NCBI GenBank assembly: GCA_045577945.1
Contig: JAZNJG010000142.1
Coordinates: 1,516-65,515 of the forward strand
Origin: Bacilli bacterium
GTDB taxonomy: Bacteria > Bacillota_I > Bacilli_A > ML615J-28 > CAG-698
DNA length: 64,000 nucleotides
Direction of reading: 5' to 3'
Below, in pieces: positions 6,422 to 41,929 of the stretch. How positions within the stretch are numbered: the stretch's first letter is position 1; each line of letters opens with the position of its first letter. The translations under genes and the position numbers were made by a program. The notes under the pieces were generated by a model that did not search any database, had not been told where the DNA came from, and saw only the letters and a list, made by a program, of their open reading frames with translations.

Positions 6422-7561
6422 ATGGTTGATATAACTTTAACAGATGAACAAAATCAAGCTATTAAAGAATTTTTTAATTGGTTTAATAATTTTAAATTAA
6501 AATATTCTAAAAGATTTTTCTTTATTTCTGGTCCTGCAGGAACAGGAAAGACAACCTTATGCCGATTTATTTTAGATGATCTTAATTCATCTGATAAAAC
6601 TGTTTGCTGTTGTGCGTTTACAGGTAAAGCATCTGTTAATTTTAAAGAAAAAACTGGTTATCCAAGTAATACAATACATTCATGTATTTATAAACCTGTT
6701 ATGAAAGATGGTAAGGTTGTTGATTGGAAATTAAATTTTTATGACAGTCCTTTTTTAGAATGCGATTTAATAATAATTGATGAAATATCAATGGTGTATA
6801 AAGAATTATGGTTAGATATATTAAAATATAACAAACCTATTCTTGTGTTTGGTGATTTAAACCAACTTCCACCTGTTAATAATGATATAATATTTAGTGA
6901 AATAAATGTAGATTTTAACCTTACACAGATACACAGACAAGCTTTAGAAAATCCAATCATTCGATTATCGATTGATGTTAGAAATGAAACAGATATTCCC
7001 TATGGTAATTTTGAAGATAAAGTGCTAAAAATACGTAGAGATGAATTTGATCTTAAAAATATTTTAAAATTTGATCAAGTACTATGTGGTCGTAACGTAA
7101 CAAGAGTTGAATTAAATAATTATACTCGACAATTATTAGGCTACACAACTCAATTACCATCTATTAATGAAAAATTAATATGTTTAAGAAATAATAGAGA
7201 TGCATATGTGTTTAATGGGCAAATATTAAATACTATAAGTAATCCAATTAAACAAGATAAGAAAAGAGGAACATTTGATATTAGACTTGACTATAACGAA
7301 GGTTATAGTAATGTATTTACTATATTTGATGATGAGTTTCTAAGAAAAGATATACGTGAGGAAAGATGGAGGATATTAAGAGATAATCCATGGTTTTGTC
7401 AATTTGATTTTTCATATACTATTTCTGTACATAAATCTCAAGGCTCAGAATGGAACACAGTGTGTTTATTTGATGAGAGTTATTGTTTTAGAGAGAGTAG
7501 GTGGAAATGGTTATATACTGGAATTACTAGATGTAAGGATAAATTACTTATAATAAAGTAA
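6422..7561 (+). CDS. dda: Dda-like SF1 DNA helicase (RecD/Dda family)
   Basis: Walker A 'GPAGTGKTT'; 'LIIIDEISM'; C-terminal motif 'VHKSQGSEW'. Confidence 0.8.
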   Translation: MVDITLTDEQNQAIKEFFNWFNNFKLKYSKRFFFISGPAGTGKTTLCRFILDDLNSSDKTVCCCAFTGKASVNFKEKTGYPSNTIHSCIYKPVMKDGKVVDWKLNFYDSPFLECDLIIIDEISMVYKELWLDILKYNKPILVFGDLNQLPPVNNDIIFSEINVDFNLTQIHRQALENPIIRLSIDVRNETDIPYGNFEDKVLKIRRDEFDLKNILKFDQVLCGRNVTRVELNNYTRQLLGYTTQLPSINEKLICLRNNRDAYVFNGQILNTISNPIKQDKKRGTFDIRLDYNEGYSNVFTIFDDEFLRKDIREERWRILRDNPWFCQFDFSYTISVHKSQGSEWNTVCLFDESYCFRESRWKWLYTGITRCKDKLLIIK

Positions 7562-7595
7562 GAGAAGAGATTAAATCTCTTCTCTTTTATTTTTT
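7561..7595 (+). terminator. terminator after dda
   Basis: 11-bp stem 'agagaagagat/atctcttctct' + 'tttatttttt'. Confidence 0.65.
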
Positions 7596-8001
7596 AACTT
7601 AGTTGCGCTTTTAATAAAGCTTTTACTTTTAACATATGTGATGATATCTCATCCAAAATTGCATTAACACCTCTATAAGTATTAATATCATCTATACCTA
7701 TTTTAATTTCATCAGCTAAATTTAATAAGAATCGAATCATTGATTCTGTGTTATTAAAATCTTCAACATAATATTTAGTAGATTCTATCTTAAATATATT
7801 CTCGATTGATTTTAAAGAATTAGTTTCTTCTGCCATAAAATATCTTTCCATCAAACTATCTATAAAATCATCAATTGGTTCAGCAACTTCATCCATAAAT
7901 TCATGTAATTCTAAAAATTGTGAACCTGTTAATTTCCAGTGTATTAATTTTGCAGATACCTTAAAAGCGTGTAATCTTGCCACCACATCTTTCATTTTCA
8001 T
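7594..8001 (-). CDS. Dps/ferritin-like protein
   Basis: 'VSAKLIHWKLTGSQFLELHEFMDE' resembles the Dps helix-A/B motif 'HW.V.G..F..LHE'. Confidence 0.45.
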   Translation of the reverse strand: MKMKDVVARLHAFKVSAKLIHWKLTGSQFLELHEFMDEVAEPIDDFIDSLMERYFMAEETNSLKSIENIFKIESTKYYVEDFNNTESMIRFLLNLADEIKIGIDDINTYRGVNAILDEISSHMLKVKALLKAQLS

Positions 8002-8099
8002 ATTTTTTACTCCTATAATAATATTTTTAATCCTAAGTATTTATGATTTTAAAATCTTATAAATAATTATAAATCTAATTTAATTTTTATAAGATTTTA

Positions 8100-8137
8100 T
8101 CAAACATTCAATATTAAATTTAATCTTGAATGTTTAT
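8100..8137 (-). other. imperfect 14-bp hairpin at the 3' end of the TnpB-like gene
   Basis: 'aaacattcaatatt aaattt aatcttgaatgttt' (one mismatch); overlaps the stop codon. Confidence 0.45.
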
Positions 8138-9322
8138 TTTTTGTACATTTAATAAGTTTTGATAATTAAATGTATGGTTAAACCATAACAACCCATATTG
8201 TTTTGCTATATTGACAGCTGAATTAATATCCCTATCAATAAAAACAGAAGGAAGAATTTCAACAATTCTATTATATAGATTTGACTTGAATTCAATTTTA
8301 TCAGTCATGCAATTTAACTGACTCGTATATGATTCATTTACTGGTATAAATTTGATATTGTTTAGTTCAGCTTTATACTGAATGAAACTCTTAAATCTAC
8401 TCAATAATCCTTCATTTTGAGTTGATTTATTTAATTTACATTTATAATTCTTTTTACATTTTTTAGTTTGAATGTCTCCTACAATAATGTTATCTATGTT
8501 TTTAGATCTACATTCATCAATAATAAATTTTGATGTTTTGTGTAAATAATCTTTTCTTTTATTTGTTAATTTTTGTTGTTTTCTTTGTTTTGTTTTAAAT
8601 AATTTTAAATATTTGTTTGAACCTTTAACTTTCTTTGATAATTTAGATTTAATACTATTAATTTGTTCTTCTAAACTTTTAAATCTTTTAGTTTGAATTT
8701 TGATACAGTCACCATTTGATTCATATATAGAAGCAATGGATGAAACACCTAAATCAATAGACATAAAATTATAATTATATTCTTTTTCTTTCTTTTGTTC
8801 AGAATAAACAAAAATTAAATAAATATCTCCATTTTCATATAGTTTGAAAACTAATTGTTTAATCGTATCAATATTGATTACATTTGTATCATAATAATCA
8901 CAATTAGATAAATCTATGTTGATTTTGGGTTTATTAATTTGTATTTGTTTGTTAATAAATTTAAAACCACCACCAATATAAATTTTATCACCTCTTTTTT
9001 GAATATTGGCATCTAATAAAATTGGAGAATAAACTCTTTCATTTTTAGGATATCTGGCTGTTTTATCTTTCTTTTTCTTAGTAAAGTATGATTTTACTGA
9101 ATTAATAACCTCTCTACTGACATTTTGAGTATGTTTAGAATGGAGTTTGTTTTCTTTGGCAAAATCTTTAGTTATTTGATGAATTTTATTAAAATCGTTA
9201 TTTTCTTTGAGATTTTGCAAACATAAATTATAAACAGTTGATAGTGATATTGAATACTGTTTTAATAATTCAATATCACTATCATTTAGAAAACTATTTA
9301 TTTTAATTCTTTTTACTAACAT
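8120..9322 (-). CDS. TnpB-like (IS200/IS605 OrfB family) RuvC-like nuclease without the canonical zinc finger
   Basis: RuvC-I 'FMSIDLGVSSIA'; RuvC-III 'YTSQ...DRDINSAVNIAKQ'; N-terminal helical region as in OrfB proteins; no adjacent TnpA; the CxxC...CxxC insert is absent. Confidence 0.55.
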   Translation of the reverse strand: MLVKRIKINSFLNDSDIELLKQYSISLSTVYNLCLQNLKENNDFNKIHQITKDFAKENKLHSKHTQNVSREVINSVKSYFTKKKKDKTARYPKNERVYSPILLDANIQKRGDKIYIGGGFKFINKQIQINKPKINIDLSNCDYYDTNVINIDTIKQLVFKLYENGDIYLIFVYSEQKKEKEYNYNFMSIDLGVSSIASIYESNGDCIKIQTKRFKSLEEQINSIKSKLSKKVKGSNKYLKLFKTKQRKQQKLTNKRKDYLHKTSKFIIDECRSKNIDNIIVGDIQTKKCKKNYKCKLNKSTQNEGLLSRFKSFIQYKAELNNIKFIPVNESYTSQLNCMTDKIEFKSNLYNRIVEILPSVFIDRDINSAVNIAKQYGLLWFNHTFNYQNLLNVQKINIQD

Positions 9323-9460
9323 AATTAAGTTATTTAAAAAAATTAACTTTATATAACTATTTATAAAAAATTACATAAGGAAATATAGATAAAAATATAT
9401 TGTAAAATAAAAATATATTATTTATAATTTTTTTATAAAAATTCATATCATTTTTGAAAG

Positions 9461-11491
9461 GTGTATCTAATAATGGATTTAATGAATGATTTATTTGGGA
9501 TTGATGAATCGGAAGATAAAATTATTTCTCTTCTTAAAAGATGTGATGATTGTTATAACAACTCTAATTGCTATTACATATTAAACGAACAAGATGTTAG
9601 TATACTATCAGATATGTCATTAAATTATAATTGTAATATAGAAGTTACTGATGATATTTATGATGAAATCTATTTTAATATTAAATCAAAATATCCTAAC
9701 AACACATACTTCAATAAAGTTGGTTCAAATGTTAAGTCAGGAAAAATAAAATTAGATATACCAATGGGCTCAGCAAGTGAATTAAAAAAAGGTGATTGGG
9801 ATAAATGGAAACTACCAATTGAGTATGTAATTAGTAATAAATTAGACGGAGTATCATGTAGGCTTTATTATGAATATGGTAAATTAGTTAAAGCTGTTTC
9901 ACGTGGAAATGGTTATGAAAGTCAAGATATCACTAAACACGTAATGAAGATTAAAAATGTTAAAAAGCAATTAAATCAAAATATTAATATTAAAATTAGA
10001 GGTGAAATTATCGTTCCAAAAACTAATATTAATTTAATGTTAGATGAAATTGAAAATGAAACTGGTGCGAGACCAAAAAATCAAAGAAACTCGGTTAGTG
10101 GTTTTATTAATAGTAAAAATGGTGTTGATTCAGTCGCAAGAAATGTTAATTTTATAGCTTATAAAATTGAAGAATGGGGTAAATCTGAATATGAGATGTT
10201 TAAGTATCTAGAGCATGAACTAGAATTTGATACAACCGAATATCATTTAATAGATGGTAATTATACTGAAGAGAAGCTAGTTAATATATTAAAAGATGTA
10301 AAAGATAACTATACATATGAATGTGATGGATTAATTATTACTCAAAATATAACTCAACCTGGTTATGAAGGTTATGAAACAAATTCTATCAAAAGAAAGT
10401 CAAGTCGAAAGTTTAAAGTTGGTTTAAGTGATAATATAACTACATCAGAAGTTATCAGTATTAATTGGAATATTTCAAAAGATGGTTTATTTAAACCAGT
10501 AGTTCAAATCAAACCTGTACAATTAGCAGGAGTAACAGTTACTCAAGCAACAGGTCATAACTATAAAAATATTATAGATAATAGAATTGGTAAAGGTGCA
10601 ATTATTACAATATCTCGCTCAGGTGAAGTTATCCCGTGGATTCAAAATGTTATTAAACCGTGTGAAGATAATATTGATAATTATGACTTACCGAATTCAC
10701 AATTATATAAAATATCTGGTGTTGATATTAAATTTACAAATATTATAACAGAAGATGATTATGATATAGATAGTGAAGTAAAATTTTACAGAAAAGAGCA
10801 AAATATTAAAAAATTAGTTTATTTTTGTAACTGTTTAGATGTGGAACAAGCTGGAGATGGTAACATTCGTAAATTAACCAATAATAAAGATCTAGTTGGT
10901 GAGAGTTTAATACCTAAAATATACAGTATTAAAGATTTAATATTAGAGCCAGTTGAAACATTTATATCAACTATAGGTGTTAACGGTCGATTATTTTATA
11001 ATTCATTACATCAAAAATTAAAAGAATGTACTGAATCTCGATTTTTTGATGCAGTTGGTTGTTTTGGAAGAGGTATTGGTGAAACAAAATTAGATAAAAT
11101 ATATAATAGATATCAAACATTAAATGTATCTTTAGAACAAGTTTTATCAACACCAGGTTTTGCTGAAAAAACATCTGAACAATATAATAATCATATGATG
11201 AATTATTTTAATTGGGTTGACTGGTTAAACAATAATAATATTCATTTAAAAACACCTGATTTATATAGCGGTGAGTGTAGTGATTTAAGTGTATGTTTTA
11301 CTGGTGTTCGTGATTCAAATATAGAGAATTTTATTAAATTAAATGGTGGTAGAATTGTATCAAGTGTAACGAAAGATTGCAATTTACTAATATGCGATTC
11401 ATTAAACAGTAATTCAGGTAAAATGAAAAAAGCTATAGAAAAACAAATTGAAATTATTAATTATGAAGAAGCGTGTAGGAGGTTTTGTTAA
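9461..11491 (+). CDS. ligA: NAD-dependent DNA ligase (LigA family)
   Basis: adenylation motif 'NKLDGVSCRLYY'; 'SRGNGYESQDIT'; 676 aa with a C-terminal BRCT-like region. Confidence 0.85.
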   Translation: MYLIMDLMNDLFGIDESEDKIISLLKRCDDCYNNSNCYYILNEQDVSILSDMSLNYNCNIEVTDDIYDEIYFNIKSKYPNNTYFNKVGSNVKSGKIKLDIPMGSASELKKGDWDKWKLPIEYVISNKLDGVSCRLYYEYGKLVKAVSRGNGYESQDITKHVMKIKNVKKQLNQNINIKIRGEIIVPKTNINLMLDEIENETGARPKNQRNSVSGFINSKNGVDSVARNVNFIAYKIEEWGKSEYEMFKYLEHELEFDTTEYHLIDGNYTEEKLVNILKDVKDNYTYECDGLIITQNITQPGYEGYETNSIKRKSSRKFKVGLSDNITTSEVISINWNISKDGLFKPVVQIKPVQLAGVTVTQATGHNYKNIIDNRIGKGAIITISRSGEVIPWIQNVIKPCEDNIDNYDLPNSQLYKISGVDIKFTNIITEDDYDIDSEVKFYRKEQNIKKLVYFCNCLDVEQAGDGNIRKLTNNKDLVGESLIPKIYSIKDLILEPVETFISTIGVNGRLFYNSLHQKLKECTESRFFDAVGCFGRGIGETKLDKIYNRYQTLNVSLEQVLSTPGFAEKTSEQYNNHMMNYFNWVDWLNNNNIHLKTPDLYSGECSDLSVCFTGVRDSNIENFIKLNGGRIVSSVTKDCNLLICDSLNSNSGKMKKAIEKQIEIINYEEACRRFC

Positions 11492-27835: not shown

Positions 27836-29467
27836 ATGGTTGAATTAGTTGATATAGAGAAAGGAAAAGAAGCTAGAGAATTAATTCTTAATGGGGTTAA
27901 AAAACTAGTCGATTCAGTTTCTTGTACTATGGGAGCTGCTGGAAGAAACGTCTTAATTGAAAAACCATTTGCTAAACCTATTCTCACTAAAGATGGTGTT
28001 TCTGTTGCAAAACCTATATATTTAGAGAATAAATTTGAAAATATGGGTGCCCAGCTTGTAAAAGAGGTCGCTCAAAAAACAGTTGATGAAGTTGGTGACG
28101 GAACTACAACAGCAACAGTTTTAACAGGTGCTCTATATGAAAATTCTATTGAATATTGTAATAAAGGATTCAATCCTGTTAAAATTAAACGTGGTATTGA
28201 GAGTTATAAACATGAATTAATTTCTTATTTAGAAGAAAATAAAAAAACTATTAACAGTAGAGAAGATATTTTTAATGTTGCTAATATATCTGCAAATGGA
28301 GATAATGAAATTGCAGATGTAATTACAGAAGCAATCGATATTACAGGTGTTGATGGTGTTGTCACAGTTGAAAATTCATCTACTACTTTAACCAATATAG
28401 AATATACAGAAGGTTTGCAGTTTGATTGTGGGTATGTATCACCATACTTTATCAATAATCAAAAGAAACTTAATTTTGAAGCAGAAAATTGTTACTTGTT
28501 AATAATTTCTGGTCATGTATATACTTTTGATGAATTGGCGGACCCATTAACACTTGCACTACAAAATAATAAACCTATTGTAATCATTGCAAATGATTTT
28601 AGTCAAGATGTTATTAATACTTTAGTTAAGAATAGATTGCAACAAAATCTTAAAGTGTGCGCAGTAAGATTACCATATTATGGTGAAGAAAGAGAAGAAT
28701 TTGCTGAAGATTTATCAATTGCACTCAGTTGTCCATATTTAAATACTAATATGAAAGAAACTATTCGTGATAATAGTTTATCTAAGTTAACAGATGGAGA
28801 TAATAATTATATTTTAATTGATAAAATTACTGTTGATAAAAACACTATTACTTTCATTAATGAAAATAAAAATCAAGCTGATTTAGATAATCGAATTGAA
28901 TATATTAAATCAAAATTAAATAATTCTAAATCACCTGTTGAACAAAATACATTAAGAGATCGATTGTCTAAATTAACCGGATCAGTTGCTATTATTAAAG
29001 TCGGTGGTGCTTCTGAAATTGAAGTTCAAGAAAAGAAAGATCGAATTGATGATGCACTACATGCAACTAAAGCATCTATTAAAGAAGGTGTAGTTATTGG
29101 TGGTGGTATGGCTTTATTGAAAGCTGTAAATAGATTAGTTAAAAATCATAGAGATGAAACGGATAGAGAGAAAATAGTAGCAATGGATATTTTAAAGAAA
29201 TCTTTAATTAAACCAGCAACAACTATTTTATCAAATGCAGGTTATGATAGTGATTTATTATTTGATAATGAGATTATTGAAAATAATAATATTGGTTATG
29301 ATGTATCTAATAGCGTTATTCAGAAAGTTGATATGTTTGAGCAAGGTATTATAGATCCTATATTGGTTACAAAAACAGCTCTTTCTAATTCAATTTCTGT
29401 TGCTGGTTTATTAATGACAACAGAAACAGCTATTGCATTAAAAAATCAAGAAAACGATATTGTATAG
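27836..29467 (+). CDS. groEL: GroEL-type chaperonin (Hsp60)
   Basis: 'AAGRNVLIEKPFAKPILTKDGVSVAK', 'GDGTTTATVL', 'IIKVGGASEIEVQEKKDRIDDALHAT'. Confidence 0.9.
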   Translation: MVELVDIEKGKEARELILNGVKKLVDSVSCTMGAAGRNVLIEKPFAKPILTKDGVSVAKPIYLENKFENMGAQLVKEVAQKTVDEVGDGTTTATVLTGALYENSIEYCNKGFNPVKIKRGIESYKHELISYLEENKKTINSREDIFNVANISANGDNEIADVITEAIDITGVDGVVTVENSSTTLTNIEYTEGLQFDCGYVSPYFINNQKKLNFEAENCYLLIISGHVYTFDELADPLTLALQNNKPIVIIANDFSQDVINTLVKNRLQQNLKVCAVRLPYYGEEREEFAEDLSIALSCPYLNTNMKETIRDNSLSKLTDGDNNYILIDKITVDKNTITFINENKNQADLDNRIEYIKSKLNNSKSPVEQNTLRDRLSKLTGSVAIIKVGGASEIEVQEKKDRIDDALHATKASIKEGVVIGGGMALLKAVNRLVKNHRDETDREKIVAMDILKKSLIKPATTILSNAGYDSDLLFDNEIIENNNIGYDVSNSVIQKVDMFEQGIIDPILVTKTALSNSISVAGLLMTTETAIALKNQENDIV

Positions 29468-33198: not shown

Positions 33199-33786
33199 AT
33201 GAGCAAATATATTATATATAGTTTTTATTGTATGGCATTAGTGATTGCAAATGTAATTGCAAATAGAATTGGACAAATAGGTTGGTTTTCTGTTGCAGGT
33301 AACCCACTAGCATACGTAACCTGTTTTTTATTCTGTGATATTATGAATGAAAAATATGGTGAAGTAGAAGCCAGAAAATTAGTTAATACAGGGTTTTTAG
33401 TTTCGATTGGGTATATGGTTTTATTATACTCAACATATCTAATTCCAGCAGGTGATTTACAGTACGATGAATCATTTAAGTTAGTTTTTAATAATAGCTA
33501 TAGAGCGGTTTTAGCGTCACTATGTGCATATCTAATTTCTAATCATATTGATGTTAAAATATTTAGTTATCTCAGACGAAAGAAGAAAGGTAAAGTAACT
33601 AGAAAAGTTATATCAACAATTATAAGTCAATTTATTGATAGCTCAATATTTGCGTTAGTTGCTTTTTTAGGTGTATTTGATCTAACATCTTTAGTATCAA
33701 TTATTATAAGCGAGTATTTAATTAAAACAATTATTAACTTATCTGAAACTCCAATTTATTGTCTATTAACAAGAAAGGGAAAATAA
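33199..33786 (+). CDS. YhhQ/QueT-family (DUF165) 7-deazaguanine precursor transporter
   Basis: 'ALVIANVIANRIGQIGWFSVAGNPLAYVTCFLFCDIMNEKYGEVEARKLVNTGF' matches the YhhQ pattern SN....LP..G...G...FP..F...D...E..G...AR; six predicted TM helices. Confidence 0.55.
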   Translation: MSKYIIYSFYCMALVIANVIANRIGQIGWFSVAGNPLAYVTCFLFCDIMNEKYGEVEARKLVNTGFLVSIGYMVLLYSTYLIPAGDLQYDESFKLVFNNSYRAVLASLCAYLISNHIDVKIFSYLRRKKKGKVTRKVISTIISQFIDSSIFALVAFLGVFDLTSLVSIIISEYLIKTIINLSETPIYCLLTRKGK

Positions 33787-34341: not shown

Positions 34342-34469
34342 ATAAAACTATAATATTCACGGCACCCAAGGCCCGCAGTCACACTCGAACGACCATCATG
34401 ACCAGAACGAGCCCGCGAACCACAATGAGAACTATCGTTCCAACCACCACCAGAAAGCAAAACACCCAT
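34308..34469 (-). CDS. mini-ORF consisting of a decayed DGR variable-repeat copy (VR2)
   Basis: 54 codons, 'MGVLLSGGGWNDSSHCGSRARSGHDGRSSVTAGLGC...', in the same reading frame as the TR/VR1 codons. Confidence 0.3.
   Translation of the reverse strand: MGVLLSGGGWNDSSHCGSRARSGHDGRSSVTAGLGCREYYSFIYINFVIFQTG
34361..34466 (-). repeat. DGR variable-repeat-like copy 2 (degenerate)
   Basis: about 85 % identical to the TR; most differences are at TR adenines, a few are not. Confidence 0.6.
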
Positions 34470-34496
34470 ATAATTTTAAAAACTTTTATAAAAAAG

Positions 34497-34522
34497 AAAC
34501 AGCTCGTATCAACGAGCTGTTT
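34497..34522 (-). terminator. hairpin terminator downstream of the DGR target gene
   Basis: perfect 10-bp stem 'aaacagctcg/cgagctgttt', followed on the minus strand by 'cttttttat'. Confidence 0.5.
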
Positions 34523-34590
34523 AGGTTTATTTGAGACTGAGAGCTTTTAACTACTACGTAGTTGGGTCCCTGGACCTGAGGTCCCTCTCG

Positions 34591-35673
34591 CTACGCTTGG
34601 TTTATATTTGGACTACGCCCGCGGCACCCATCGCCCGCATTCACATGCGAACGACCAACAGCACCAGTACGAGCCCGCGAACCACAATCAGAACCATTGT
34701 CCCAATCACCACCAGCACGCAAAACATAACAAGCTCCGTAATATGCACCTTTTGATGTATCTTGTAATTGAGTCCATCCTGAGCCACCAGAAGCTGAAGG
34801 AGATTCTAGCCATTGCCAGAGATAGCCACACATTTCTTCACACCCGTAATTAGAAATCATTCTTCTACTCGCTGTATCTACGTGGCCACCAGAAGTTTTT
34901 GGATTTGGAGCAGCAGCACCATAAATTGAAGTTTTTTGATTAGATCCTTCAGCAGCGCATTGAAATTCTGTATCTCCTAGAGGTTGTTTCTTGACATACA
35001 TTAAATCTTCATAATGAAGAGGTGGGTTTCTTGAATCAGTTACTGTACCACCATAAACAGACATTGTATTGGTTCCAGTTCCAGATTGTAAATATATATC
35101 ACACCAGAAATTTAAGGGCTCAATATAAACCATACCTTCAGGCGAGCAGTGAGGGCGTCTATTCAAACACCAAACTGAAGCCGGTAAAATTTCTCCTGCA
35201 ATATAACCTGATAATGGGTGATCTGTAATTGTACCTACATTTACACATAATGTGTGAAATCCACCAATTTTTCTAGTATTATTAGCTGTGAATCCTGTCG
35301 GGTATGTTGAGTTTTTAGAACACTTAAATCCTATTTGACCATTATTATTATATATGTAAATATAATAATTTGCACCTGCATCTAATGTAGTCCCATTATC
35401 TAGTATATCTAATACATTTAATGTAGTATCTTCGGGTATTGAATAGAACATATCATTACCATCAACATTTAATCTAATAAATGTCCCAGCAGCTATTGTT
35501 AAAGTTTGTCTATCACTAGCTGACATAAAAGGTGTTGAGTATGCAGAAAAATCGACTTTAAAGTCTGCACTCGCTTTATTTTTAAGTGCATCAATGTCAG
35601 TATTCATTGTTGAGAGGGTATCTTTAAGAGTATCAACACGTTCAACAGGTATTTTACTTGTATTAACAACCAT
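34591..35673 (-). CDS. DGR target protein (putative receptor-binding/tail-fibre-like, C-type-lectin-type variable C-terminus)
   Basis: C-terminal 37 codons are the variable repeat; C-terminus '...AGGDWDNGSDCGSRARTGAVGRSHVNAGDGCRGRSPNINQA*' vs TR-encoded 'AGGNWNNSSNCGSRARNGNDGRSNVNANNGCRGR'. Confidence 0.8.
   Translation of the reverse strand: MVVNTSKIPVERVDTLKDTLSTMNTDIDALKNKASADFKVDFSAYSTPFMSASDRQTLTIAAGTFIRLNVDGNDMFYSIPEDTTLNVLDILDNGTTLDAGANYYIYIYNNNGQIGFKCSKNSTYPTGFTANNTRKIGGFHTLCVNVGTITDHPLSGYIAGEILPASVWCLNRRPHCSPEGMVYIEPLNFWCDIYLQSGTGTNTMSVYGGTVTDSRNPPLHYEDLMYVKKQPLGDTEFQCAAEGSNQKTSIYGAAAPNPKTSGGHVDTASRRMISNYGCEEMCGYLWQWLESPSASGGSGWTQLQDTSKGAYYGACYVLRAGGDWDNGSDCGSRARTGAVGRSHVNAGDGCRGRSPNINQA
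34615..34726 (-). repeat. DGR variable repeat (VR1)
   Basis: 112 nt; the 14 mismatches to the TR are all at TR adenines. Confidence 0.85.
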
Positions 35674-35683
35674 TATTTTTTTC

Positions 35684-36019
35684 CTATTTAATTAAAGTTT
35701 CAATTTCTTCTTTAGTAAACCCTATACGAAATATATATGCATTAGAGTCTTCAACGAATTCGTATTGATGACGAATAGGGCTTGTTAGTTTATTACCATC
35801 TTTATCTTCTTCCTCTATAATAATTTTATGAGTTTCATCTTCAACACCATCACCAACTAATTCTGTTTCTTGCCAAATAAAACGATTATCATAAGCTTCT
35901 TTTAATTTTTGTTTTCCATACATACCAAATAATTCAATACAGTTTAAGTAATCTTCTTTGGTATTAAAAAATTTAGGTAAACCTCTCATTAAACATTTCC
36001 TTTCTAATATTTTATACAT
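35684..36019 (-). CDS. hypothetical acidic protein (111 aa) upstream of the DGR target
   Basis: ORF; does not look like a basic Avd. Confidence 0.4.
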   Translation of the reverse strand: MYKILERKCLMRGLPKFFNTKEDYLNCIELFGMYGKQKLKEAYDNRFIWQETELVGDGVEDETHKIIIEEEDKDGNKLTSPIRHQYEFVEDSNAYIFRIGFTKEEIETLIK

Positions 36020-36073
36020 ATATTCAATAATATTTATACTAGAATCGGCTATGAATAATTGTTAAAAAAATAG

Positions 36074-36101
36074 TTGTTTTTTAATTTATTTATGTTATAA
36101 T
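36074..36101 (+). promoter_or_regulatory. sigma70-like promoter upstream of the DGR TR-RT unit
   Basis: TTGTTT-16-TATAAT. Confidence 0.4.
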
Positions 36102-36190
36102 CATAGATGTGATTATAAAAATCACAGGTTATAGGTTTACAATACACTGTAAGTTTTGCATAACGACGCATTACATACAAAGCAAAACCT

Positions 36191-36302
36191 TGTTTTGCAT
36201 GCTGGTGGTAATTGGAACAATAGTTCTAATTGTGGTTCACGAGCTCGTAATGGTAATGATGGTCGTTCGAATGTGAATGCGAACAATGGGTGCCGCGGGC
36301 GT
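36191..36302 (+). repeat. DGR template repeat (TR)
   Basis: AAY-codon-rich 112-nt segment 147 nt upstream of the RT; invariant template for VR1 and VR2. Confidence 0.85.
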
Positions 36303-36448
36303 GATATATTAACACCAATTTAGTTAATAGCCGAATCTATATTCCTTGGTATTAATTTACCAAAATAACACTAAGAAAGACTATCGAAGCTAGTAATAAT
36401 ATATGAACGTTTTGATAGTCTTAACCTTTATATAAAGAGAAGCATACT

Positions 36449-38119
36449 ATGAAGAGATATGGTAATTTTTGGGATAATATAGTTACAAAATCAAATATTT
36501 TATTATCATATTTAAATGCTAAAGTTGGTAAGAGAAAGAAAAGAAATGTAAGACGCTTTTATAAAAACTGGCGTGAAAATCTTGATAAAATACAACATTC
36601 TCTCAAATTTTTTACATTTAAAACTGGTCAATATAATAGCAAAGAATTATACGAACCAAAGAAAAGAGTTATATACATATTACCATTTAATCCAGATCGA
36701 ATCGTTCAACACGCAGTTATGAATGAAATTAAAAAGATCTGGAATAAAATTTTTATTAGCGATAGTTATGCTTGTCGTGACAAAAAAGGAATGCACCGAG
36801 GATCAAATAAAGTTAGAGGGTGGGTAAAGATTAATAAGTATTGTCTTAAAATGGATGTAAGAAAATTTTATCTTAATATTAATCATGAAATATTAAAGAC
36901 AATTATAAGAAAAAAGTTAAAAGATATATACCTTTTAAAAGTTTTTGATAATATCATTGATAGTTTTCCAGGTGAGATAAATGTTCCTATAGGAAATTTT
37001 ACATCTCAATGGTTTGGTAATCTATATATGAATGAACTAGATTATTATGTAAAACATACACTTCATTGTAAATATTATATTCGATATTGTGATGATTTTT
37101 GTTTATTTAGTAATAATAAACAACAATTACATGATTGGTCGGCTTTGATAAAGCAATTTTTAAAAGATAAATTACAATTAGAGTTAAGTAAAAATGATGT
37201 TTTTCCTGTAACAAGAGGTGTTGATTTTTTAGGTTATCGCCATTTTCCAAATAAAGTTTTAGTTCGAAAAAGAACTATTAAAAAATTTAAAAAAATTTTT
37301 AGAAAAATTGCAAAGAAAATTCAAGAAGATAACTACAATAATTACACATACATTCTTGGTTTTTTGAATTCATCTAAAGGTTGGTTAGATCATGCTAATA
37401 CTCATCGATTTAAAGAAAGGTGGAAAATTGAAGAACTAATTAAATTATTAAGAGTATGTGAATATAGTAAATTCAAAAAGCTATTCATATATGTTGCGAA
37501 TATACCTGCAAAAACATATATAATTAATGATGAGAGAATAAATGAGATTATTCAAGAAGCAAGAAGTATTAAAATTAACAAAACTCAGACAATGAAGAAA
37601 TCAATAAAAATAGATATTAGTAAATTAAAAAATTTTCAATACACACCATATGCTGAACCAGGTGATTGGATGAATTTGAGTGAACAATTTAAAATAAATA
37701 CTTTTAACGATATGGAATGTGAAAATTTATTTTTAAAAGAATTGGATATGAATAGTGAATTAAAGAAAGAAATCGTGTCATTATCAGATTTAATAGGTGC
37801 TAGTAAAATAAAATACCCAACTATTAAATTAGAAGAAATAATAGATATTGATGTACTAATACATAGTATGTATATAGCACCAAGTATTAAAAGTGAGGGT
37901 AAAGATTATGCACGATTTATAATTACAAAATTAGATAGTGATGAAAAGCTAACATTTACAACTGAAAGTGTATCTGTTGTTGATAGTGTAAAAAGAGTAT
38001 TAGCGAAATTTGATTCATTAAATATAAGTGAAGAATCTAGACCACTTATCAAATCTAGATTTGTATATGAATTTTCAAAAAAATCAGGTAGACGGTATAT
38101 AAAAATGATTTCTTTATGA
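36449..38119 (+). CDS. DGR reverse transcriptase with a ~200-aa C-terminal extension
   Basis: 'VPIGNFTSQWFGN' (DGR-type IGxxxSQ motif); 'YIRYCDDFCLF' (YxDD); 'VDFLGYRHF'. Confidence 0.85.
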   Translation: MKRYGNFWDNIVTKSNILLSYLNAKVGKRKKRNVRRFYKNWRENLDKIQHSLKFFTFKTGQYNSKELYEPKKRVIYILPFNPDRIVQHAVMNEIKKIWNKIFISDSYACRDKKGMHRGSNKVRGWVKINKYCLKMDVRKFYLNINHEILKTIIRKKLKDIYLLKVFDNIIDSFPGEINVPIGNFTSQWFGNLYMNELDYYVKHTLHCKYYIRYCDDFCLFSNNKQQLHDWSALIKQFLKDKLQLELSKNDVFPVTRGVDFLGYRHFPNKVLVRKRTIKKFKKIFRKIAKKIQEDNYNNYTYILGFLNSSKGWLDHANTHRFKERWKIEELIKLLRVCEYSKFKKLFIYVANIPAKTYIINDERINEIIQEARSIKINKTQTMKKSIKIDISKLKNFQYTPYAEPGDWMNLSEQFKINTFNDMECENLFLKELDMNSELKKEIVSLSDLIGASKIKYPTIKLEEIIDIDVLIHSMYIAPSIKSEGKDYARFIITKLDSDEKLTFTTESVSVVDSVKRVLAKFDSLNISEESRPLIKSRFVYEFSKKSGRRYIKMISL

Positions 38120-38210: not shown

Positions 38211-38297
38211 GGAGGCGTGCTGTAAGTGGTAGCCAGATCAGACTTAAAATCTGAGGGAGATTTCTCCGTGTGGGTTCAAGTCCCTCCGCCTCTACCA
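38211..38297 (+). tRNA. tRNA-Leu(TAA), long variable arm
   Basis: cloverleaf; anticodon loop 'cuUAAaa'; 3' CCA encoded. Confidence 0.75.
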
Positions 38298-38323
38298 TTT
38301 TAATAAATAATTACATAACAAAC

Positions 38324-38399
38324 GCCGACATAGCTCAACTGGTAGAGCAACTCACTTGTAATGAGAAGGTTGGGAGTTCAAGTCTCTCTGTCGGCACCA
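38324..38399 (+). tRNA. tRNA-Thr(TGT)
   Basis: acceptor gccgaca/tgtcggc; anticodon loop 'cuUGUaa'. Confidence 0.65.
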
Positions 38400-38412
38400 T
38401 TATTTTTTTTTT

Positions 38413-38487
38413 GGTCCCATCGTCTAATGGTTAGGACATCACCCTTTCACGGTGGTAATATGGGTTCGAATCCCGTTGGGATCACCA
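38413..38487 (+). tRNA. tRNA-Glu(TTC)
   Basis: 'cccuuucacgg' anticodon arm as in bacterial tRNA-Glu; T-loop 'ggttcgaatcc'. Confidence 0.75.
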
Positions 38488-38495
38488 ATTTTTAT

Positions 38496-38570
38496 TCCGA
38501 CTTAGCTCAGCGGTAGAGCAATCGGCTGTTAACCGATCGGTCATCTGTTCGAATCAGATAGTCGGAGCCA
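38496..38570 (+). tRNA. tRNA-Asn(GTT)
   Basis: anticodon arm 'atcgg cuGUUaa ccgat'; acceptor tccgact/agtcgga. Confidence 0.75.
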
Positions 38571-38579
38571 ATTTTTATA

Positions 38580-38650
38580 GGGATGTAGCTCAGCTGGTAA
38601 GAGTAGTAGTCTGATAAACTATAGGTTGTTGGTTTAAGTTTAGTACGAGG
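38580..38650 (+). pseudogene. tRNA-Ile(GAT)-like 5' portion without a matching 3' acceptor strand
   Basis: good acceptor-5', D arm and anticodon arm 'gtagt cuGAUaa actat', but no T arm or acceptor complement follows. Confidence 0.35.
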
Positions 38651-38674
38651 AGAGCTATTTCTTATATATTATAT

Positions 38675-38760
38675 GGGTGGGTTGCATAGAGGCTTATTGC
38701 AGCGGACTGTAAATTCGCCGTCTTCGGACATCGGTGGTTCAAATCCATCCCCACCCACCA
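38675..38760 (+). tRNA. tRNA-Tyr(GTA), long variable arm
   Basis: acceptor gggtggg/cccaccc; anticodon loop 'cuGUAaa'; T-loop 'ggttcaaatcc'. Confidence 0.75.
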
Positions 38761-39147
38761 TTTTTCCGAATAAAAACGGAGATTTATACTATATAATATT
38801 TACAGTACACTGTTATATTATTAAAGTATAAACGTAGGGAGTTCTTCAATCGGTAGCTCCAAAGACAACGAAAATGTTTAATTAAGAACCGATTTTTATT
38901 TTATGAGAGGTAGAAGAAATAGATGTTTTTCTTCTATAAATTATTAAATATAGTAAGAATCTTCTAAAGTTTTAATTTTAATTTAGGTAAGATTAAAATT
39001 AATTTGATAGAGACTTAATTCTTATGGAACGCTCTATTACATAAAAGGTTATAAGATAGTTTACCTGAACTTTTAACATATATGTAGGAGTTTAATAATT
39101 TATATAACCTACTAACTATTCTTGTAGGAAACCTTTCACCATTTATA

Positions 39148-39552
39148 ATGAAAGGTAAAAAAAATATGGAATTAAAAAAGAGATATGGTATATTTCTCAT
39201 TAAAGAGAAAGTATTATATGGATATGTTGAAAATTCTTTTTCAATGAGCTGGGAACCAAATTGTGTAAGAGCTTGGAAATTAGAAGACTTACAATGGATT
39301 TGGAATAATGGCGTTAGACCTTATGGTTTAGATACTAAATATACAAAAGGAATTAAAGCCAAATATCCAAAAGCTTTTATCGTTCGTATTACTGATAATT
39401 TTCCCAAACAATTTCAAAATAAATTAAGAAAGAAAATAAAAATTCATTGGAAAGAAAGACAAGATATATTAAATAGAACAGAAGAAGAACAAAAGAAAAA
39501 ATATATTAGCAAAAAATATCACGCTAGAAATGTTCGGTTTAGTGAGGTGTGA
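39148..39552 (+). CDS. hypothetical basic protein (134 aa)
   Basis: ORF inside the tRNA region. Confidence 0.4.
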   Translation: MKGKKNMELKKRYGIFLIKEKVLYGYVENSFSMSWEPNCVRAWKLEDLQWIWNNGVRPYGLDTKYTKGIKAKYPKAFIVRITDNFPKQFQNKLRKKIKIHWKERQDILNRTEEEQKKKYISKKYHARNVRFSEV

Positions 39553-39992
39553 GTTTTACAGATAATATATTGGGATTATTTAGCTAATTTTCTTCAATAT
39601 ATTATTTGAGAATAACAAAGTAAGAAGTGATAAGCTTATGGAGTTATTTTATACGATGGGAAAGACCATTGACATATTGGAATCAGACAATAAGGTTACA
39701 CCAAGTATTATACAGACCTTATAAAGTGTGTTTGCACTGATCTCGTGCGGTGTTAAAATAAACAGGAGTTGGCTCTTTTAGATATGAGTAACACAGTGAT
39801 ATCTAATATAGTGAAAAATAAAATTAGACATTCTTATCAAATTGGAAATTATATTTATTTTTCACTGAATTTTTTTTATACCACGATCGTTCATTGGTTA
39901 GAGTGTGGTCTTATATACCTAGTATCGTAGTTTGAGTCTCACCATTCCAGCCATTTTATAATTATTAAAATAATTTCTAATTTATAAAACAA

Positions 39993-40066
39993 TAGAGTGT
40001 CGTCTAATGGTAGGACATCGCACTTTGACTGCGACAATAGTGGTTCGAATCCATTCACTCTAACCA
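39993..40066 (+). tRNA. tRNA-Gln(TTG)
   Basis: acceptor tagagtg/cactcta; anticodon arm 'tcgca cuUUGac tgcga'. Confidence 0.7.
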
Positions 40067-40100
40067 ATTCTAATTTACTCTTATCTTCATAAAATTTCTC

Positions 40101-40129
40101 TTGATTATATTAAAAATATATTATATAAT
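40101..40129 (+). promoter_or_regulatory. early sigma70-like promoter
   Basis: TTGATT-17-TATAAT, shared motif 'ttgattatattaaaaat.tattatata'. Confidence 0.6.
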
Positions 40130-40154
40130 ATTAATATACTTAAAGGAAAATAAA

Positions 40155-40523
40155 ATGAAAAGTTTTAAAGATTTTTTAACAGAAGCAAAAGAAAATATTA
40201 GTCATAAACTCGTTGATATGAAAATTATTAATGAGATGGCTACTCTTGCTGCTAAAAGCGATGGAGTTGGATTTATAGCTCGTATATATTCTAATGATCA
40301 CGAGCCCGCTCATATGCATATTTTAGATTATAATAATAAAAAATTAGCTAAAGTTTTATTATCGGGAAATACTCCATCGAAAATTAATGATTTTCAATTC
40401 TTAGATGGTGAATTGGATAGAGATATGTTAAAGAAATTATTAAAATGGGCTAAAGGAAATAATGAAGAAGGTTTTAATAATTGGATATATAGCTTCTCGG
40501 TATGGAAGTCAGAACATAAATAA
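40155..40523 (+). CDS. internal-protein-like small protein with a CTS-like N-terminus 'MKSFKDFLTEAKE'
   Basis: N-terminus resembles the T4 IPI/II/III capsid-targeting sequence 'MKTYQEFIAEA'; true start is the internal Met after RBS 'aaaggaaaataaaatg', not the track start at 40101. Confidence 0.5.
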   Translation: MKSFKDFLTEAKENISHKLVDMKIINEMATLAAKSDGVGFIARIYSNDHEPAHMHILDYNNKKLAKVLLSGNTPSKINDFQFLDGELDRDMLKKLLKWAKGNNEEGFNNWIYSFSVWKSEHK

Positions 40524-40535
40524 AAGGAAAATAAA

Positions 40536-40715
40536 ATGAAAAAGAAGAAACGAAAACGATTTATAAATGGTGATGAAAGAAATTTAAGATTTAATCTCTT
40601 TCATAATGGATTATTTAAACAAAAGATTATACCAAATAAAAAGAAGAAAGTTAAAAAGTTTGACTATAAAAAAGAAATCAGTTCTTATCTAAACATTTAT
40701 TCATTGAGTTTTTAG
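40536..40715 (+). CDS. small highly basic protein (59 aa)
   Basis: 'MKKKKRKRFINGDERNLRF...'; RBS 'aaaaggaaaataaaatg'. Confidence 0.3.
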   Translation: MKKKKRKRFINGDERNLRFNLFHNGLFKQKIIPNKKKKVKKFDYKKEISSYLNIYSLSF

Positions 40716-40776
40716 ACAAGAACTGATTTTTATAATAAATAATTTATATAAATGCATTTATAAAGGAAAACCAAAT

Positions 40777-41136
40777 ATGAAAACATTTAGGGAATTTTTA
40801 TTAGAAGCTAAAATAAATGAAGATACTATGACTCCAGACGAAATTAAAAACTTCATCGATGATCATAAAATTCGAAAAGATATAGGAACTGGAGTATTTA
40901 AATATACTAAAGTAGAGGAATCTGTGTCATTAGATGAAGAAAAAATATCAGACATTAGAACCTTAAAGAAAGGTCAAAAATTTAAATTCAAAAATTCTAA
41001 AGACAATAATACTTATATTATTACTCGTAAATTCAATTCTAATTCATTATCATATGATAATGTAAATACTAAAGAACATTATATATGGGATTGGAGTCAA
41101 GTCCATGAACGTGATGTTATAGTTGAATCAAAATAA
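40777..41136 (+). CDS. internal-protein-like small protein with CTS-like N-terminus 'MKTFREFLLEAKINE'
   Basis: same N-terminal family as 40155, 60427 and 63247. Confidence 0.5.
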   Translation: MKTFREFLLEAKINEDTMTPDEIKNFIDDHKIRKDIGTGVFKYTKVEESVSLDEEKISDIRTLKKGQKFKFKNSKDNNTYIITRKFNSNSLSYDNVNTKEHYIWDWSQVHERDVIVESK

Positions 41137-41463
41137 TTAACAGAAGCTAGCTTAAATCTTGATGATAGTTTTGAATTTGAAAGAACCAAATTTAATATTA
41201 AATAGTGGGATAATGGTGAAATTCAAATTACAAGTTCACATCCATATGATTTAGCTGAATATCATTGAGCTAAAAGTAGAAACGATGGCAAAACATTTGA
41301 TATTATATTAGATAATAAAAGAGTTAAAACTGTTGTTACTAGATCATGGGAAAGAATTGATGATGAAGATTTGGGTGATTATGCAACATTTTCATGGTCT
41401 GAAATCACAAAAGTTCTAAAAGATATGGATAAAAGAGTAAAACCTCATATTGACAGAACTTAA
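41137..41463 (+). pseudogene. stop-interrupted continuation of the 40777 reading frame
   Basis: same frame stays coding-like ('...ITKVLKDMDKRVKPHIDRT') but holds in-frame TAA, TAG and TGA. Confidence 0.3.
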
Positions 41464-41523
41464 TTGTTTAAAATGTTTTCAAAATAAACTCTTATAAATA
41501 ATAATATAAGAGTTTATTTTTTA

Positions 41524-41601
41524 CTCGTAGTTGCATAGTCTGGCTAATGCGCTTGGTTTGGGTCCAAGAGATCGGGAGTTCGAATCTCTCCTACGAGACC
41601 A
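41524..41601 (+). tRNA. tRNA-Pro(TGG)
   Basis: acceptor ctcgtag/ctacgag; anticodon arm 'cttgg uuUGGgu ccaag'. Confidence 0.7.
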
Positions 41602-41607
41602 TTTTAT

Positions 41608-41683
<76 letters not shown>

Positions 41684-41690
41684 TTTTAAA

Positions 41691-41765
41691 GGGAATGTAG
41701 CTCAGAGGAAGAGCGCTACACTGTCACTGTAGAGGTCGAGATATCGTAATTCTTCATTCCCGCCA
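41691..41765 (+). tRNA. tRNA-Asp(GTC)
   Basis: acceptor gggaatg/cattccc; anticodon arm 'ctaca cuGUCac tgtag'; atypical T-loop. Confidence 0.6.
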
Positions 41766-41774
41766 TATATTATT

Positions 41775-41848
41775 AGAGATTTAGTTTAGTGGTAAAACAT
41801 CGGTCTCCAAAACCGAAGTCAGCTGTTCAAATCAGTTAATCTCTGCCA
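41775..41848 (+). tRNA. tRNA-Trp(CCA)
   Basis: acceptor agagatt/aatctct; anticodon arm 'tcggt cuCCAaa accga'. Confidence 0.7.
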
Positions 41849-41855
41849 TTTATAT

Positions 41856-41929
41856 GGAGAGTTGACAGATCGGTTATGTGGAAGACTGCAAATCTTTTTA
41901 GAGGTGTTCGACTCACCTACTCTCCTCCA
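41856..41929 (+). tRNA. tRNA-Cys(GCA)
   Basis: acceptor ggagagt/actctcc; anticodon loop 'cuGCAaa'. Confidence 0.6.

Follow-up and report, generated by a model that had tools for sequence, protein, structure and literature searches.

Does a lone gene for a TnpB-like nuclease in a lytic phage genome represent a domesticated enzyme, or does it belong to a mobile element that has lost its transposase? The question is raised by a 64,000-nt stretch of a contig filed under a Bacilli bacterium (GCA_045577945.1, JAZNJG010000142.1, positions 1,516 to 65,515; hereafter, the window), which is a segment of a T4-like phage with about 26% GC. An initial annotation, made from the letters and their open reading frames (ORFs), had noted a 400-amino-acid (aa) RuvC protein with a hairpin at the 3' end of its gene and had suggested a domesticated or guide-RNA-dependent nuclease. 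We consider it likely that positions 8043..9388 are an IS607-family insertion sequence of the type of ISCaje1, an element of Campylobacter phages, which has lost the transposase gene tnpA and has kept tnpB together with the scaffold of a guide (omega) RNA; for this element, we propose omega-RNA-guided cutting of empty alleles. The features concerned are collected in Table 1.

Copies of the element at unrelated loci

Copies of the element on other phage contigs are 87-95% identical, and the DNA that they have in common extends only from the left end to ...ATCAT, the flanks being unrelated. Similarity to the window stops at ...TTATAAGATTTTAAAATCAT, that is, at position 8043. Near-identical copies variously adjoin a terminase gene, a tail-fibre-like gene, QueC genes and a DNA polymerase gene; among them, the copy of contig L001, a 235-kb T4-like contig, adjoins terminase and sheath genes and that of L003 QueC-like genes, while the L084 copy lies beside a DUF4376 gene. 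In five syntenic contigs, the ligase and ferritin-like genes that enclose the element in the window are 100-116 bp apart, with no TnpB gene between them (the ferritin-like proteins are 64-70% identical).

In L003 and L090, whose TnpB proteins show 90 and 61% aa identity, a 206-aa protein with MerR-type helix-turn-helix and resolvase domains, namely an IS607 TnpA, is encoded directly upstream of tnpB. TnpA is found in the same place in Campylobacter phage CP21. The tnpA gene of L003 is bracketed by TATAAATAATTATA repeats; the window copy and the L001 copy are deletions between these repeats with different junctions, and in phage CP220 a stump of tnpA (the first ~40 codons) is left, so that the gene was evidently lost repeatedly. 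The sites of tnpA loss that were compared are 9323-9388 in the window, ~9920-10000 in L001 and 2765-3000 in L096. No tnpA was found within the window, in agreement with the initial annotation, which had seen none next to tnpB. Since tnpA is present in L003, L090 and CP21 and absent here, the window copy, which has no serine recombinase gene, is a tnpA-deleted derivative and not a complete IS607 element.

The varied loci, the siblings bearing IS607 tnpA, the empty sites in syntenic relatives and the differing sequence 3' of the right end lead us to conclude, as far as sequence comparison goes, that 8043..9388 is a mobile insertion sequence and not a fixed, host-adapted gene; for the same reasons, the suggestion of domestication is not supported. 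An IStron, i.e. an IS607-type element carrying a group I intron, was also considered; this reading was dropped, as an Rfam search of 7000-10500 even at E <= 10 gave no group I intron and only chance-level matches.

As a separate observation, the copies in L087 and L089 have a common right flank (the gp13 side, with gp13 called as two ORFs), and their left flanks differ.

Table 1. Coordinates of the element, its parts and its flanks in the window, and left flanks of the copies compared (SL, stem-loop; TAM, target-adjacent motif)
Feature	Position	Strand	Remark
Insertion element	8043..9388	minus	~1.35 kb; left end, tnpB, right-end RNA scaffold
Target motif TTTAT in left flank, predicted TAM	9389..9393	minus	last two bases AT (9389-9390), probable crossover dinucleotide
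Left end CTATATTTCCTTATG... and former tnpA-tnpB spacer	9323..9388	minus	aligned with L003 (full element), L001 and L090
tnpB ORF	8120..9322	minus	400 aa, ATG start
Codon D190	8753-8755	minus	tnpB
Codon G282	8477-8479	minus	tnpB
Codon E330	8333-8335	minus	tnpB
Codon C338	8309-8311	minus	tnpB
Codon D365	8228-8230	minus	tnpB
Predicted omega (right-end) RNA scaffold	8043..8224	minus	182 nt, five stems, tail AAATCAT
SL1	8205-8218	minus
SL2	8176-8193	minus
SL3	8144-8174	minus
SL4	8101-8136	minus	hairpin of the initial annotation; spans TAA stop codon 8120-8122
SL5	8050-8099	minus
Right-end terminus AAATCAT	8043..8049	minus	element stops at 8043
Predicted guide AAATACTTAGGATTAAAAAT	8023..8042	minus	read 8042 to 8023; phage flank, also 5' leader of ferritin-like gene
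Ferritin-like gene	7594..8001	minus	135 aa; right-end flank; Pfam Ferritin 2.7e-6
NAD-dependent DNA ligase gene	9461..11491	plus	left-end flank; Pfam DNA_ligase_aden, OB, BRCT; synteny in L091-L095
Precise-deletion joint of window site			...ATATTTTTATAAATACTTAGG...; reconstructed
Left flank, window			ends in ATATTTTTAT
Left flank, L003			ends in GCATTTTTAT
Left flank, L090			ends in TCATTTTTAT
Left flank, L001			ends in AAATTTTAT
Left flank, L087			ends in TTTTTTTAT
Left flank, L089			ends in ACTTTAT
Left flank, CP220			ends in CATTTTAT
Left flank, CP21			ends in GATATTAT

The TnpB protein and its putative active site

The 400-aa protein matched the Pfam families OrfB_IS605 (PF01385, 6e-18) and Cas12f1-like_TNB (PF07282, 7e-10), both above the gathering score, the NCBIfam model NF040570 guided_TnpB (135.3 bits with a cut-off of 100, residues 10-374) and PHROG 506 'transposase' (1.5e-50). 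The profile search proposed by the initial annotation therefore bears out its assignment to the TnpB-like RuvC proteins, whose motifs IDLG and DRDINSAVNIA can be read directly. An AlphaFold2 model built from 40 homologues (mean predicted local distance difference test score 88.6) has the WED/REC and split RuvC fold of TnpB, and its best PDB matches in Foldseek were AsCas12f, ISFba1 TnpB (8iaz), mimivirus Fanzor2 (9b0l) and ISDra2 TnpB, with E from 1e-16 to 1e-11. There is one copy of tnpB within the window, and close protein homologues (87-99% identity) are encoded on other contigs. Judged by these matches, the gene is an intact member of the TnpB family (OMEGA class; obligate mobile element-guided activity). 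It does not have the traits of a Fanzor: RuvC-I reads DLG and not DPG, and the context is a T4-like bacteriophage, unlike the eukaryotic or eukaryotic-virus setting of Fanzors.

The aspartates of RuvC-I ('SIDLG', D190) and RuvC-III ('DRDINSAVNIA', D365) are invariant in 40 family members. The canonical RuvC-II glutamate ('VEDL' in solved TnpBs), on the other hand, aligns in pairwise alignments with G282 in 'IIVGDI', a substitution that the initial annotation had overlooked. Both G282 and E330 ('VNESYTSQ') are invariant in the same 40 members. The site was surveyed in a library of 1.84 billion proteins, using those of its best 150 representatives that are full-length: wherever RuvC-II has Gly and a residue is aligned at the alternative site, this residue is always Glu, and it is Pro, Ala or Ser in the proteins that keep the canonical Glu. 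E330 is thus probably the catalytic glutamate in place of G282, in a 'rearranged' D-G-E-D arrangement. In the RIIr clades, an alternative Glu makes up for the 'glutamate ... replaced with glycine', and these proteins are probably active (PMC10691335); an equivalent rearrangement is described for the 'Ealt' IS607 TnpBs and Fanzors, which are also probably active (PMC10711439). A missing catalytic triad had been named at the outset as an argument against a TnpB, and the canonical Glu is in fact absent, but the family-wide alternative E330 would restore the triad. With D190, E330 and D365 conserved and both locus and flank varying, the protein also differs from TldR proteins, which have lost RuvC residues and have a fixed locus and a conserved guide.

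The segment in which the zinc finger would be expected contains, as first annotated, a single Cys (C338), which aligns to the first Cys of the ancestral CxxC, and there is no C4 finger. No CxxC pair is present in the ~14 closest full-length representatives of clusters at 50% identity, and the next outgroups retain C4. Zinc fingers have been lost in some large TnpB branches, and some branches with a rearranged RuvC-II are virus-specific (PMC10691335, PMC10711439).

The ratio of nonsynonymous to synonymous substitution rates (dN/dS) was 0.10-0.18 between copies with dS of 0.37-0.54. Since these values are well below 1 also for the pair of window and L001, both without tnpA, the TnpB protein is maintained by purifying selection. 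This result bears on the possibility that the locus is a decaying remnant, in which tnpB and the RNA would be functionless passengers after the loss of tnpA and disabling mutations would have yet to accumulate. The deletion of tnpA, the absence of the canonical RuvC-II Glu and of the zinc finger, and a frameshift in tnpB of the CP21 copy of the sister element are what this explanation would lead one to expect; we nevertheless regard it as unlikely, because the full-length ORF has been kept at the above divergence in two independently tnpA-less copies as well, because Glu relocation and zinc-finger loss are states of the whole family and not private lesions, and because the RNA stems described below are preserved by compensatory substitutions.

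A covarying RNA structure at the right end

The fold of 8043-8250 on the minus strand gave z = -5.25 with respect to shuffled sequences, and independent minimum-free-energy folds of nine copies converged on one five-stem layout common to all. RNAalifold applied to the nine copies predicted 41 pairs, and compensatory changes are seen in 19 of these. In the MAFFT-based alignment of these copies, 92.7% of the cells pair, as compared to 39-45% with slid partners. A 12-sequence alignment made with a covariance model gave 92.1% (37-45% when slid) and 25 pairs changing on both sides (3-9 when slid), values that none of 500 shuffles reached; this alignment is fitted to the model and so leans to the structure, whereas the nine-copy result is without such bias. 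When 11 RNA regions were aligned with MAFFT alone, the variable 3' part came out misaligned and stems 4 and 5 disappeared, and the covariance-model alignment was used instead.

The covariance model built from the nine copies, which is the search that the initial annotation had advised, had a single strong match within the window, at 8043-8224 with 127 bits, recovered copies on which it had not been trained (L101 with 108 bits, L109 with 87 bits and L007 with 31 bits) and found nothing in the empty-site contigs. The same Rfam search as above (7000-10500, E <= 10) contained no omega-RNA family, only chance-level matches. The 14-bp hairpin originally placed at 8100..8137 is real: it corresponds to stem-loop 4 and is conserved with compensatory changes, 9 of the 10 pairs of helix 4 changing on both sides. 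Its arms are AAACATTCAA and TTGAATGTTT in the window, AAACATCCAAG and CTTGGATGTTT in L003, and AAACACTATC and GATAGTGTTT in L090.

Covariation is thus strong evidence for a conserved guide-RNA scaffold that lies at the 3' end of tnpB and ends at the right end of the element. An omega RNA had been predicted there, and this much stands; the scaffold is not confined, however, to the spacer of ~120 nt after the gene, but runs from 8224, ~100 nt within the ORF, to 8043. The spacer between tnpB and the ferritin-like gene, 118 nt long, is made up of 77 nt of element (8119 to 8043) and 41 nt of phage flank (8042 to 8002), of which the next ~20 nt would be the guide. Stems 1-3 lie inside the region coding for RuvC-III, and this coding sequence is therefore doubly constrained.

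It could be argued that these structures are transcription terminators or hairpins that stabilise the mRNA, given that stems 4 and 5 are located at or after the stop codon, where terminators occur, and that no Rfam family matches. We hold this to be improbable: three more covarying stems lie within the reading frame of tnpB, as far as 100 nt before its stop codon; no U-run follows stem 4 or 5, the latter being followed by AAAAUCAU; and in every case the structure stops exactly where the element does, as in characterised omega RNAs (PMC10711439).

L087 contains a second TnpB-like gene 5.4 kb away from the first (the loci are L087 3240-4477 and 9893-10439), which is unmatched by the RNA model; this suggests a different family.

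Element ends, target motif and predicted guide

The left end could be defined in eight insertions, and in all of them (T)TTAT stands directly 5' of the element (Table 1); L084 was left out of this count, as its left end aligns poorly, and the left ends of L101 and L109 were placed tentatively. At the right, all copies end in ATCAT, with varying bases before it (AAATCAT in the window and most others, AGATCAT in L087, L101 and L109). Beyond ATCAT, the sequences diverge completely, and the would-be guide differs at each locus.

The ends are best defined for ISCaje1, for which an occupied and an empty allele of high identity can be compared. The occupied allele of CP220 reads ...ACATTCATTTTAT/ATTCTATGCC...AAAAATCAT/ATATTTTTG (slashes mark the junctions) and the empty allele of CPt10 ...ACATTCATTTTATATATTTTTG. 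It follows from this comparison that the T-rich motif on the left belongs to the target DNA, and TTTTTAT, which had been tried as the start of the left end, was ruled out. The junctions are ...CATTTT(AT)/element...ATC(AT)/ATATTTTTG. The empty allele has AT only once; its presence at both junctions is as expected for the core dinucleotide of a serine recombinase, and an AT crossover is predicted for the window copy as well. What characterises IS607 ends (no terminal inverted repeats or target duplication, a matching core dinucleotide, a precise empty site) is found in ISCaje1, the sister element, and was reconstructed for the window copy.

By analogy with characterised TnpB and IS607 systems (PMC10711439; bioRxiv 10.1101/2023.11.20.567912), the window copy is predicted to have the TAM TTTAT, the crossover AT, a scaffold ending at 8043 and the guide AAATACTTAGGATTAAAAAT. 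In the IS607 element of C. botulinum, the TAM TGGG is the target of TnpA, and the omega RNA ends in the look-alike UCGG, which differs at -3 (bioRxiv 10.1101/2023.11.20.567912). The reconstructed empty site ...ATATTTTTAT/AAATACTTAGG... resembles ...TTTATAAATAATT..., which the relatives have at the equivalent position. A search of the window for a second copy of the right end, guide or RNA, the first of which the initial annotation had proposed to look for, found none; the sole other match had 21 bits (E = 0.33).

Insertion into a late promoter of the T4 type was considered as well. The reconstructed joint TTTAT/AAATAC contains TATAAATA, which the relatives also have at that place; this motif is not enriched in the AT-rich window (30 found, 30.3 expected), and its occurrence here is a positional remark only. 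It also occurs inside the left end at 9358-9365, 35 nt upstream of the ATG of tnpB.

At the ISCaje1 site of CP21 (L097, ~2252 and ~4291), 41 nt of the empty allele of phage F379 (L100) are missing. In the allele of phage CJLB-14 (L099), the sequence found after the right end in CP21 (TTTTTAGATTTACTTG) is immediately preceded by TTTTAT, which makes a perfect predicted TAM and target. The comparison of the three suggests an adjacent deletion after insertion.

The same data disfavour an exapted TnpB, a fixed phage gene with a constant guide for attack on hosts or competitors or for TldR-like repression: the absence of tnpA next to it in the window and in several relatives, the purifying selection on tnpB and the loss of the zinc finger, which could suggest a derived function, might speak for it, but it is the least probable of the alternatives, since the locus is not fixed, syntenic relatives have no TnpB there, the sequence after the right end differs per locus and therefore leaves no conserved guide, the putative guide has no other match in the window, and the putative catalytic D/E/D is retained, unlike in TldR. 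Domestication, a dead remnant and terminators are all less likely than a mobile element with a functional omega RNA.

Proposed mechanism

The proposal builds on what is established: that the protein belongs to the TnpB family and is under selection, where the element ends, that insertions are polymorphic, that the RNA covaries and that a flank motif is conserved. The most likely role of the element would be omega-RNA-guided cutting of empty alleles, which would give retention or homing. In detail, tnpB would be transcribed rightwards and through the right end; the 3' part of the transcript would fold into the five-stem scaffold, to which TnpB would bind, and the ~20 nt past ...AUCAU (AAAUACUUAGGAUUAAAAAU) would serve as guide. 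The complex would then cut phage genomes with the uninterrupted site 5'-TTTAT/AAATACTTAGG..., i.e. alleles without the element. In a recombination-proficient T4-like phage, the break would be repaired from an element-bearing genome, so that the cassette would be retained and, TnpA or not, could home in co-infections; to transpose to new (T)TTAT sites, it would depend on TnpA from a full copy. The homing logic of an IS607 TnpB has been worked out experimentally for the C. botulinum IStron (bioRxiv 10.1101/2023.11.20.567912).

Several points weigh against this proposal. RNA expression, the TAM, cleavage and homing are taken over from characterised IS605 and IS607 systems, and for expression, processing and cleavage this counts against it. 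The TAM is derived from eight insertions, one only with a high-identity empty allele; the motif in the flank is not uniform, being ATTAT in CP21 and possibly AATAT in L101, and the flank of L090 ends in ATCAT like the right end, so that the proposed self-avoidance through the difference at -3 is not clean. The empty alleles of the window site are diverged (64-70% aa identity in the flanking gene), and the junction is reconstructed, not observed. The zinc finger of most characterised TnpBs is absent from this protein, and among the solved structures compared there is no TnpB without zinc finger and with a relocated Glu. Finally, the copies sampled for P0042 and P0016 each occupy a single locus in many samples, which fits vertical inheritance equally well as homing.

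More tentatively, and with the odds somewhat against it, the idea can be extended to the tnpA-less TnpB/omega-RNA cassettes of this clade: in virulent T4-like phages, these could be self-sufficient RNA-guided homing endonucleases, in effect gene drives, that cut TTTAT-flanked empty alleles of co-infecting genomes and are copied in by the recombination-dependent replication of the phage. If so, this clade would be a compact nuclease (400 aa) without zinc finger and with a relocated Glu, with AT as crossover and a TAM made up of A and T only, in contrast to the IS607 systems characterised so far, which are G-rich.

Phage context and other features of the window

The genes of the window include those for the gp15 tail-sheath stabiliser, a gp10-like protein, NrdD, the NAD-dependent ligase and a Dda-like helicase, in addition to 10 tRNAs; related contigs, some of them from gut metagenomes, encode a clamp loader (gp44-like), rIIB, gp13 and gp23. 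A megablast search of 7000-11000 against deposited phages gave no match, and the window phage is therefore without a close deposited relative. A scan of IMG/VR with the ferritin-like protein found nothing, and one with the TnpB profile found mostly distant TnpBs (~33% aa identity), together with CP21 and three others.

A gene for a ~410-aa DUF7487 protein lies between the ferritin-like and helicase genes in L091 (6571-7806) and L095 (6624-7856) and is absent from this place in the window and L093; another DUF7487 gene is found near gp23 in L001 (18084-19208). It may be a second gene of the presence/absence (mobile) kind in these phages.

Further away from the element, 34360-38119 contains a module resembling a diversity-generating retroelement, with a gene for a protein with an Mtd second domain (34591..35673, minus) and one for a reverse transcriptase (36449..38119, plus). 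A pair of 105-nt direct repeats (34360-34464 and 34622-34726) is 85% identical, with a local GC of 0.345 as compared to ~0.26 elsewhere; the mismatches are not simply adenine-specific, so a template repeat was not identified. The tRNA genes (Leu, Thr, Glu, Asn, Tyr, Gln, Pro, Met, Trp, Cys) occupy 38211-41929. Auxiliary genes unusual in phages are found at 27836-29467, 33199-33786 and 61001-63213, and encode a GroEL-type chaperonin, a Vut_1 (queuosine-precursor-type) transporter, an IMPDH/GMP-reductase-like protein and a pyridine-nucleotide-disulphide oxidoreductase with a 4Fe-4S domain.

Comparison with known systems

ISDra2 TnpB of the IS200/IS605 family (PDB 8EXA, 8H1J, 8BF8) is similar to the window protein in fold and size, and the 3' end of its gene encodes the guide RNA, which runs over the right end, as predicted here. 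It differs in having the canonical D-E-D triad, a C4 zinc finger, a Y1 transposase partner with transposition through single-stranded DNA, and the TAM TTGAT; sequence similarity is weak (E = 1.7e-4). With the RIIr groups (Altae-Tran et al., 2023, PMC10691335) and the 'Ealt' TnpBs and Fanzors (Yoon et al., 2023, PMC10711439), the window TnpB shares the Gly in place of the canonical Glu and the position of the alternative Glu just upstream of the zinc finger, E330 being 8 residues before the relic C338.

The C. botulinum IStron TnpB (bioRxiv 10.1101/2023.11.20.567912) and ISXfa1 TnpB (PMC10711439) have a serine-recombinase partner, as do siblings of the window copy, and, as predicted here, a matching dinucleotide at the ends and an omega RNA that ends with it at the right end; their TAM overlaps the target motif of the transposase, as the predicted TAM does here. 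The right-end terminus resembles the TAM and differs from it at -3 in both cases (TGGG and TCGG there, TTTAT and ATCAT here). Core and TAM are G-rich in those systems (GG; TGGG) and predicted to be AT-only in the window (AT; TTTAT); those proteins keep the zinc finger, which the window TnpB does not have, and no group I intron was detected here.

Seg, Mob and I-Tev are protein-only homing endonucleases of T4-like phages. They are alike in the role that we propose, the cutting of element-free alleles of co-infecting phages so that repair copies the element in; recognition is by protein in their case and would be by guide RNA and TAM in ours, and there is no homology. If the TnpB described here is active, an RNA-guided nuclease would have been kept in strictly lytic phages after the loss of the transposase, which would suggest that homing between co-infecting phages, and not transposition, maintains it. 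It would also be a small TnpB without zinc finger, with a relocated catalytic Glu and a predicted TTTAT TAM, a combination absent among the solved and characterised TnpBs compared. Searches of the literature, of incomplete coverage, turned up no work on homing of lytic phages' elements by TnpB.

The closest named relative, with 57% aa identity over the full length (tblastn against deposited phages), is the TnpB of Campylobacter Firehammervirus phages, that is, of ISCaje1 in CP220, CPt10 and CP21, which are virulent T4-like myoviruses too. ISCaje1 is annotated as 'TnpB component only' in CP220 and CPt10, and has a full IS607-type tnpA and tnpB in CP21. Like the window element, it has the right-end terminus AAAAATCAT, the five-stem RNA and a (T)TTAT flank; unlike it, its 3' untranslated region is 45 nt long (77 nt here), the phage lineage and insertion sites are different, and only 57% of the protein is identical. 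In the CPt10 record (FN667789.1, ~147077-148388), the depositors noted a 'possible CRISPR DR consensus AAAAAATTAATTGATTTTATAAAAGA with 1 spacer' under or beside ISCaje1, which could be repeated end sequence instead. TnpB-only elements were described at different sites in virulent Campylobacter phages, with ATTTT as the target of ISCaje2 and ISCaje3 (Timms et al., 2010, PMC2853527). TnpB-only elements of this family in T4-like phages have therefore been known since 2010, and active-site rearrangement and zinc-finger loss at the level of clades since 2023; the RNA model and the AT crossover with its TTTAT motif appear not to have been described before for this clade. The present work mainly extends the 2010 observation on ISCaje to T4-like phages of a new lineage, which is very rich in AT and includes contigs from gut metagenomes, and adds to it the element ends, the target motif and the RNA model.

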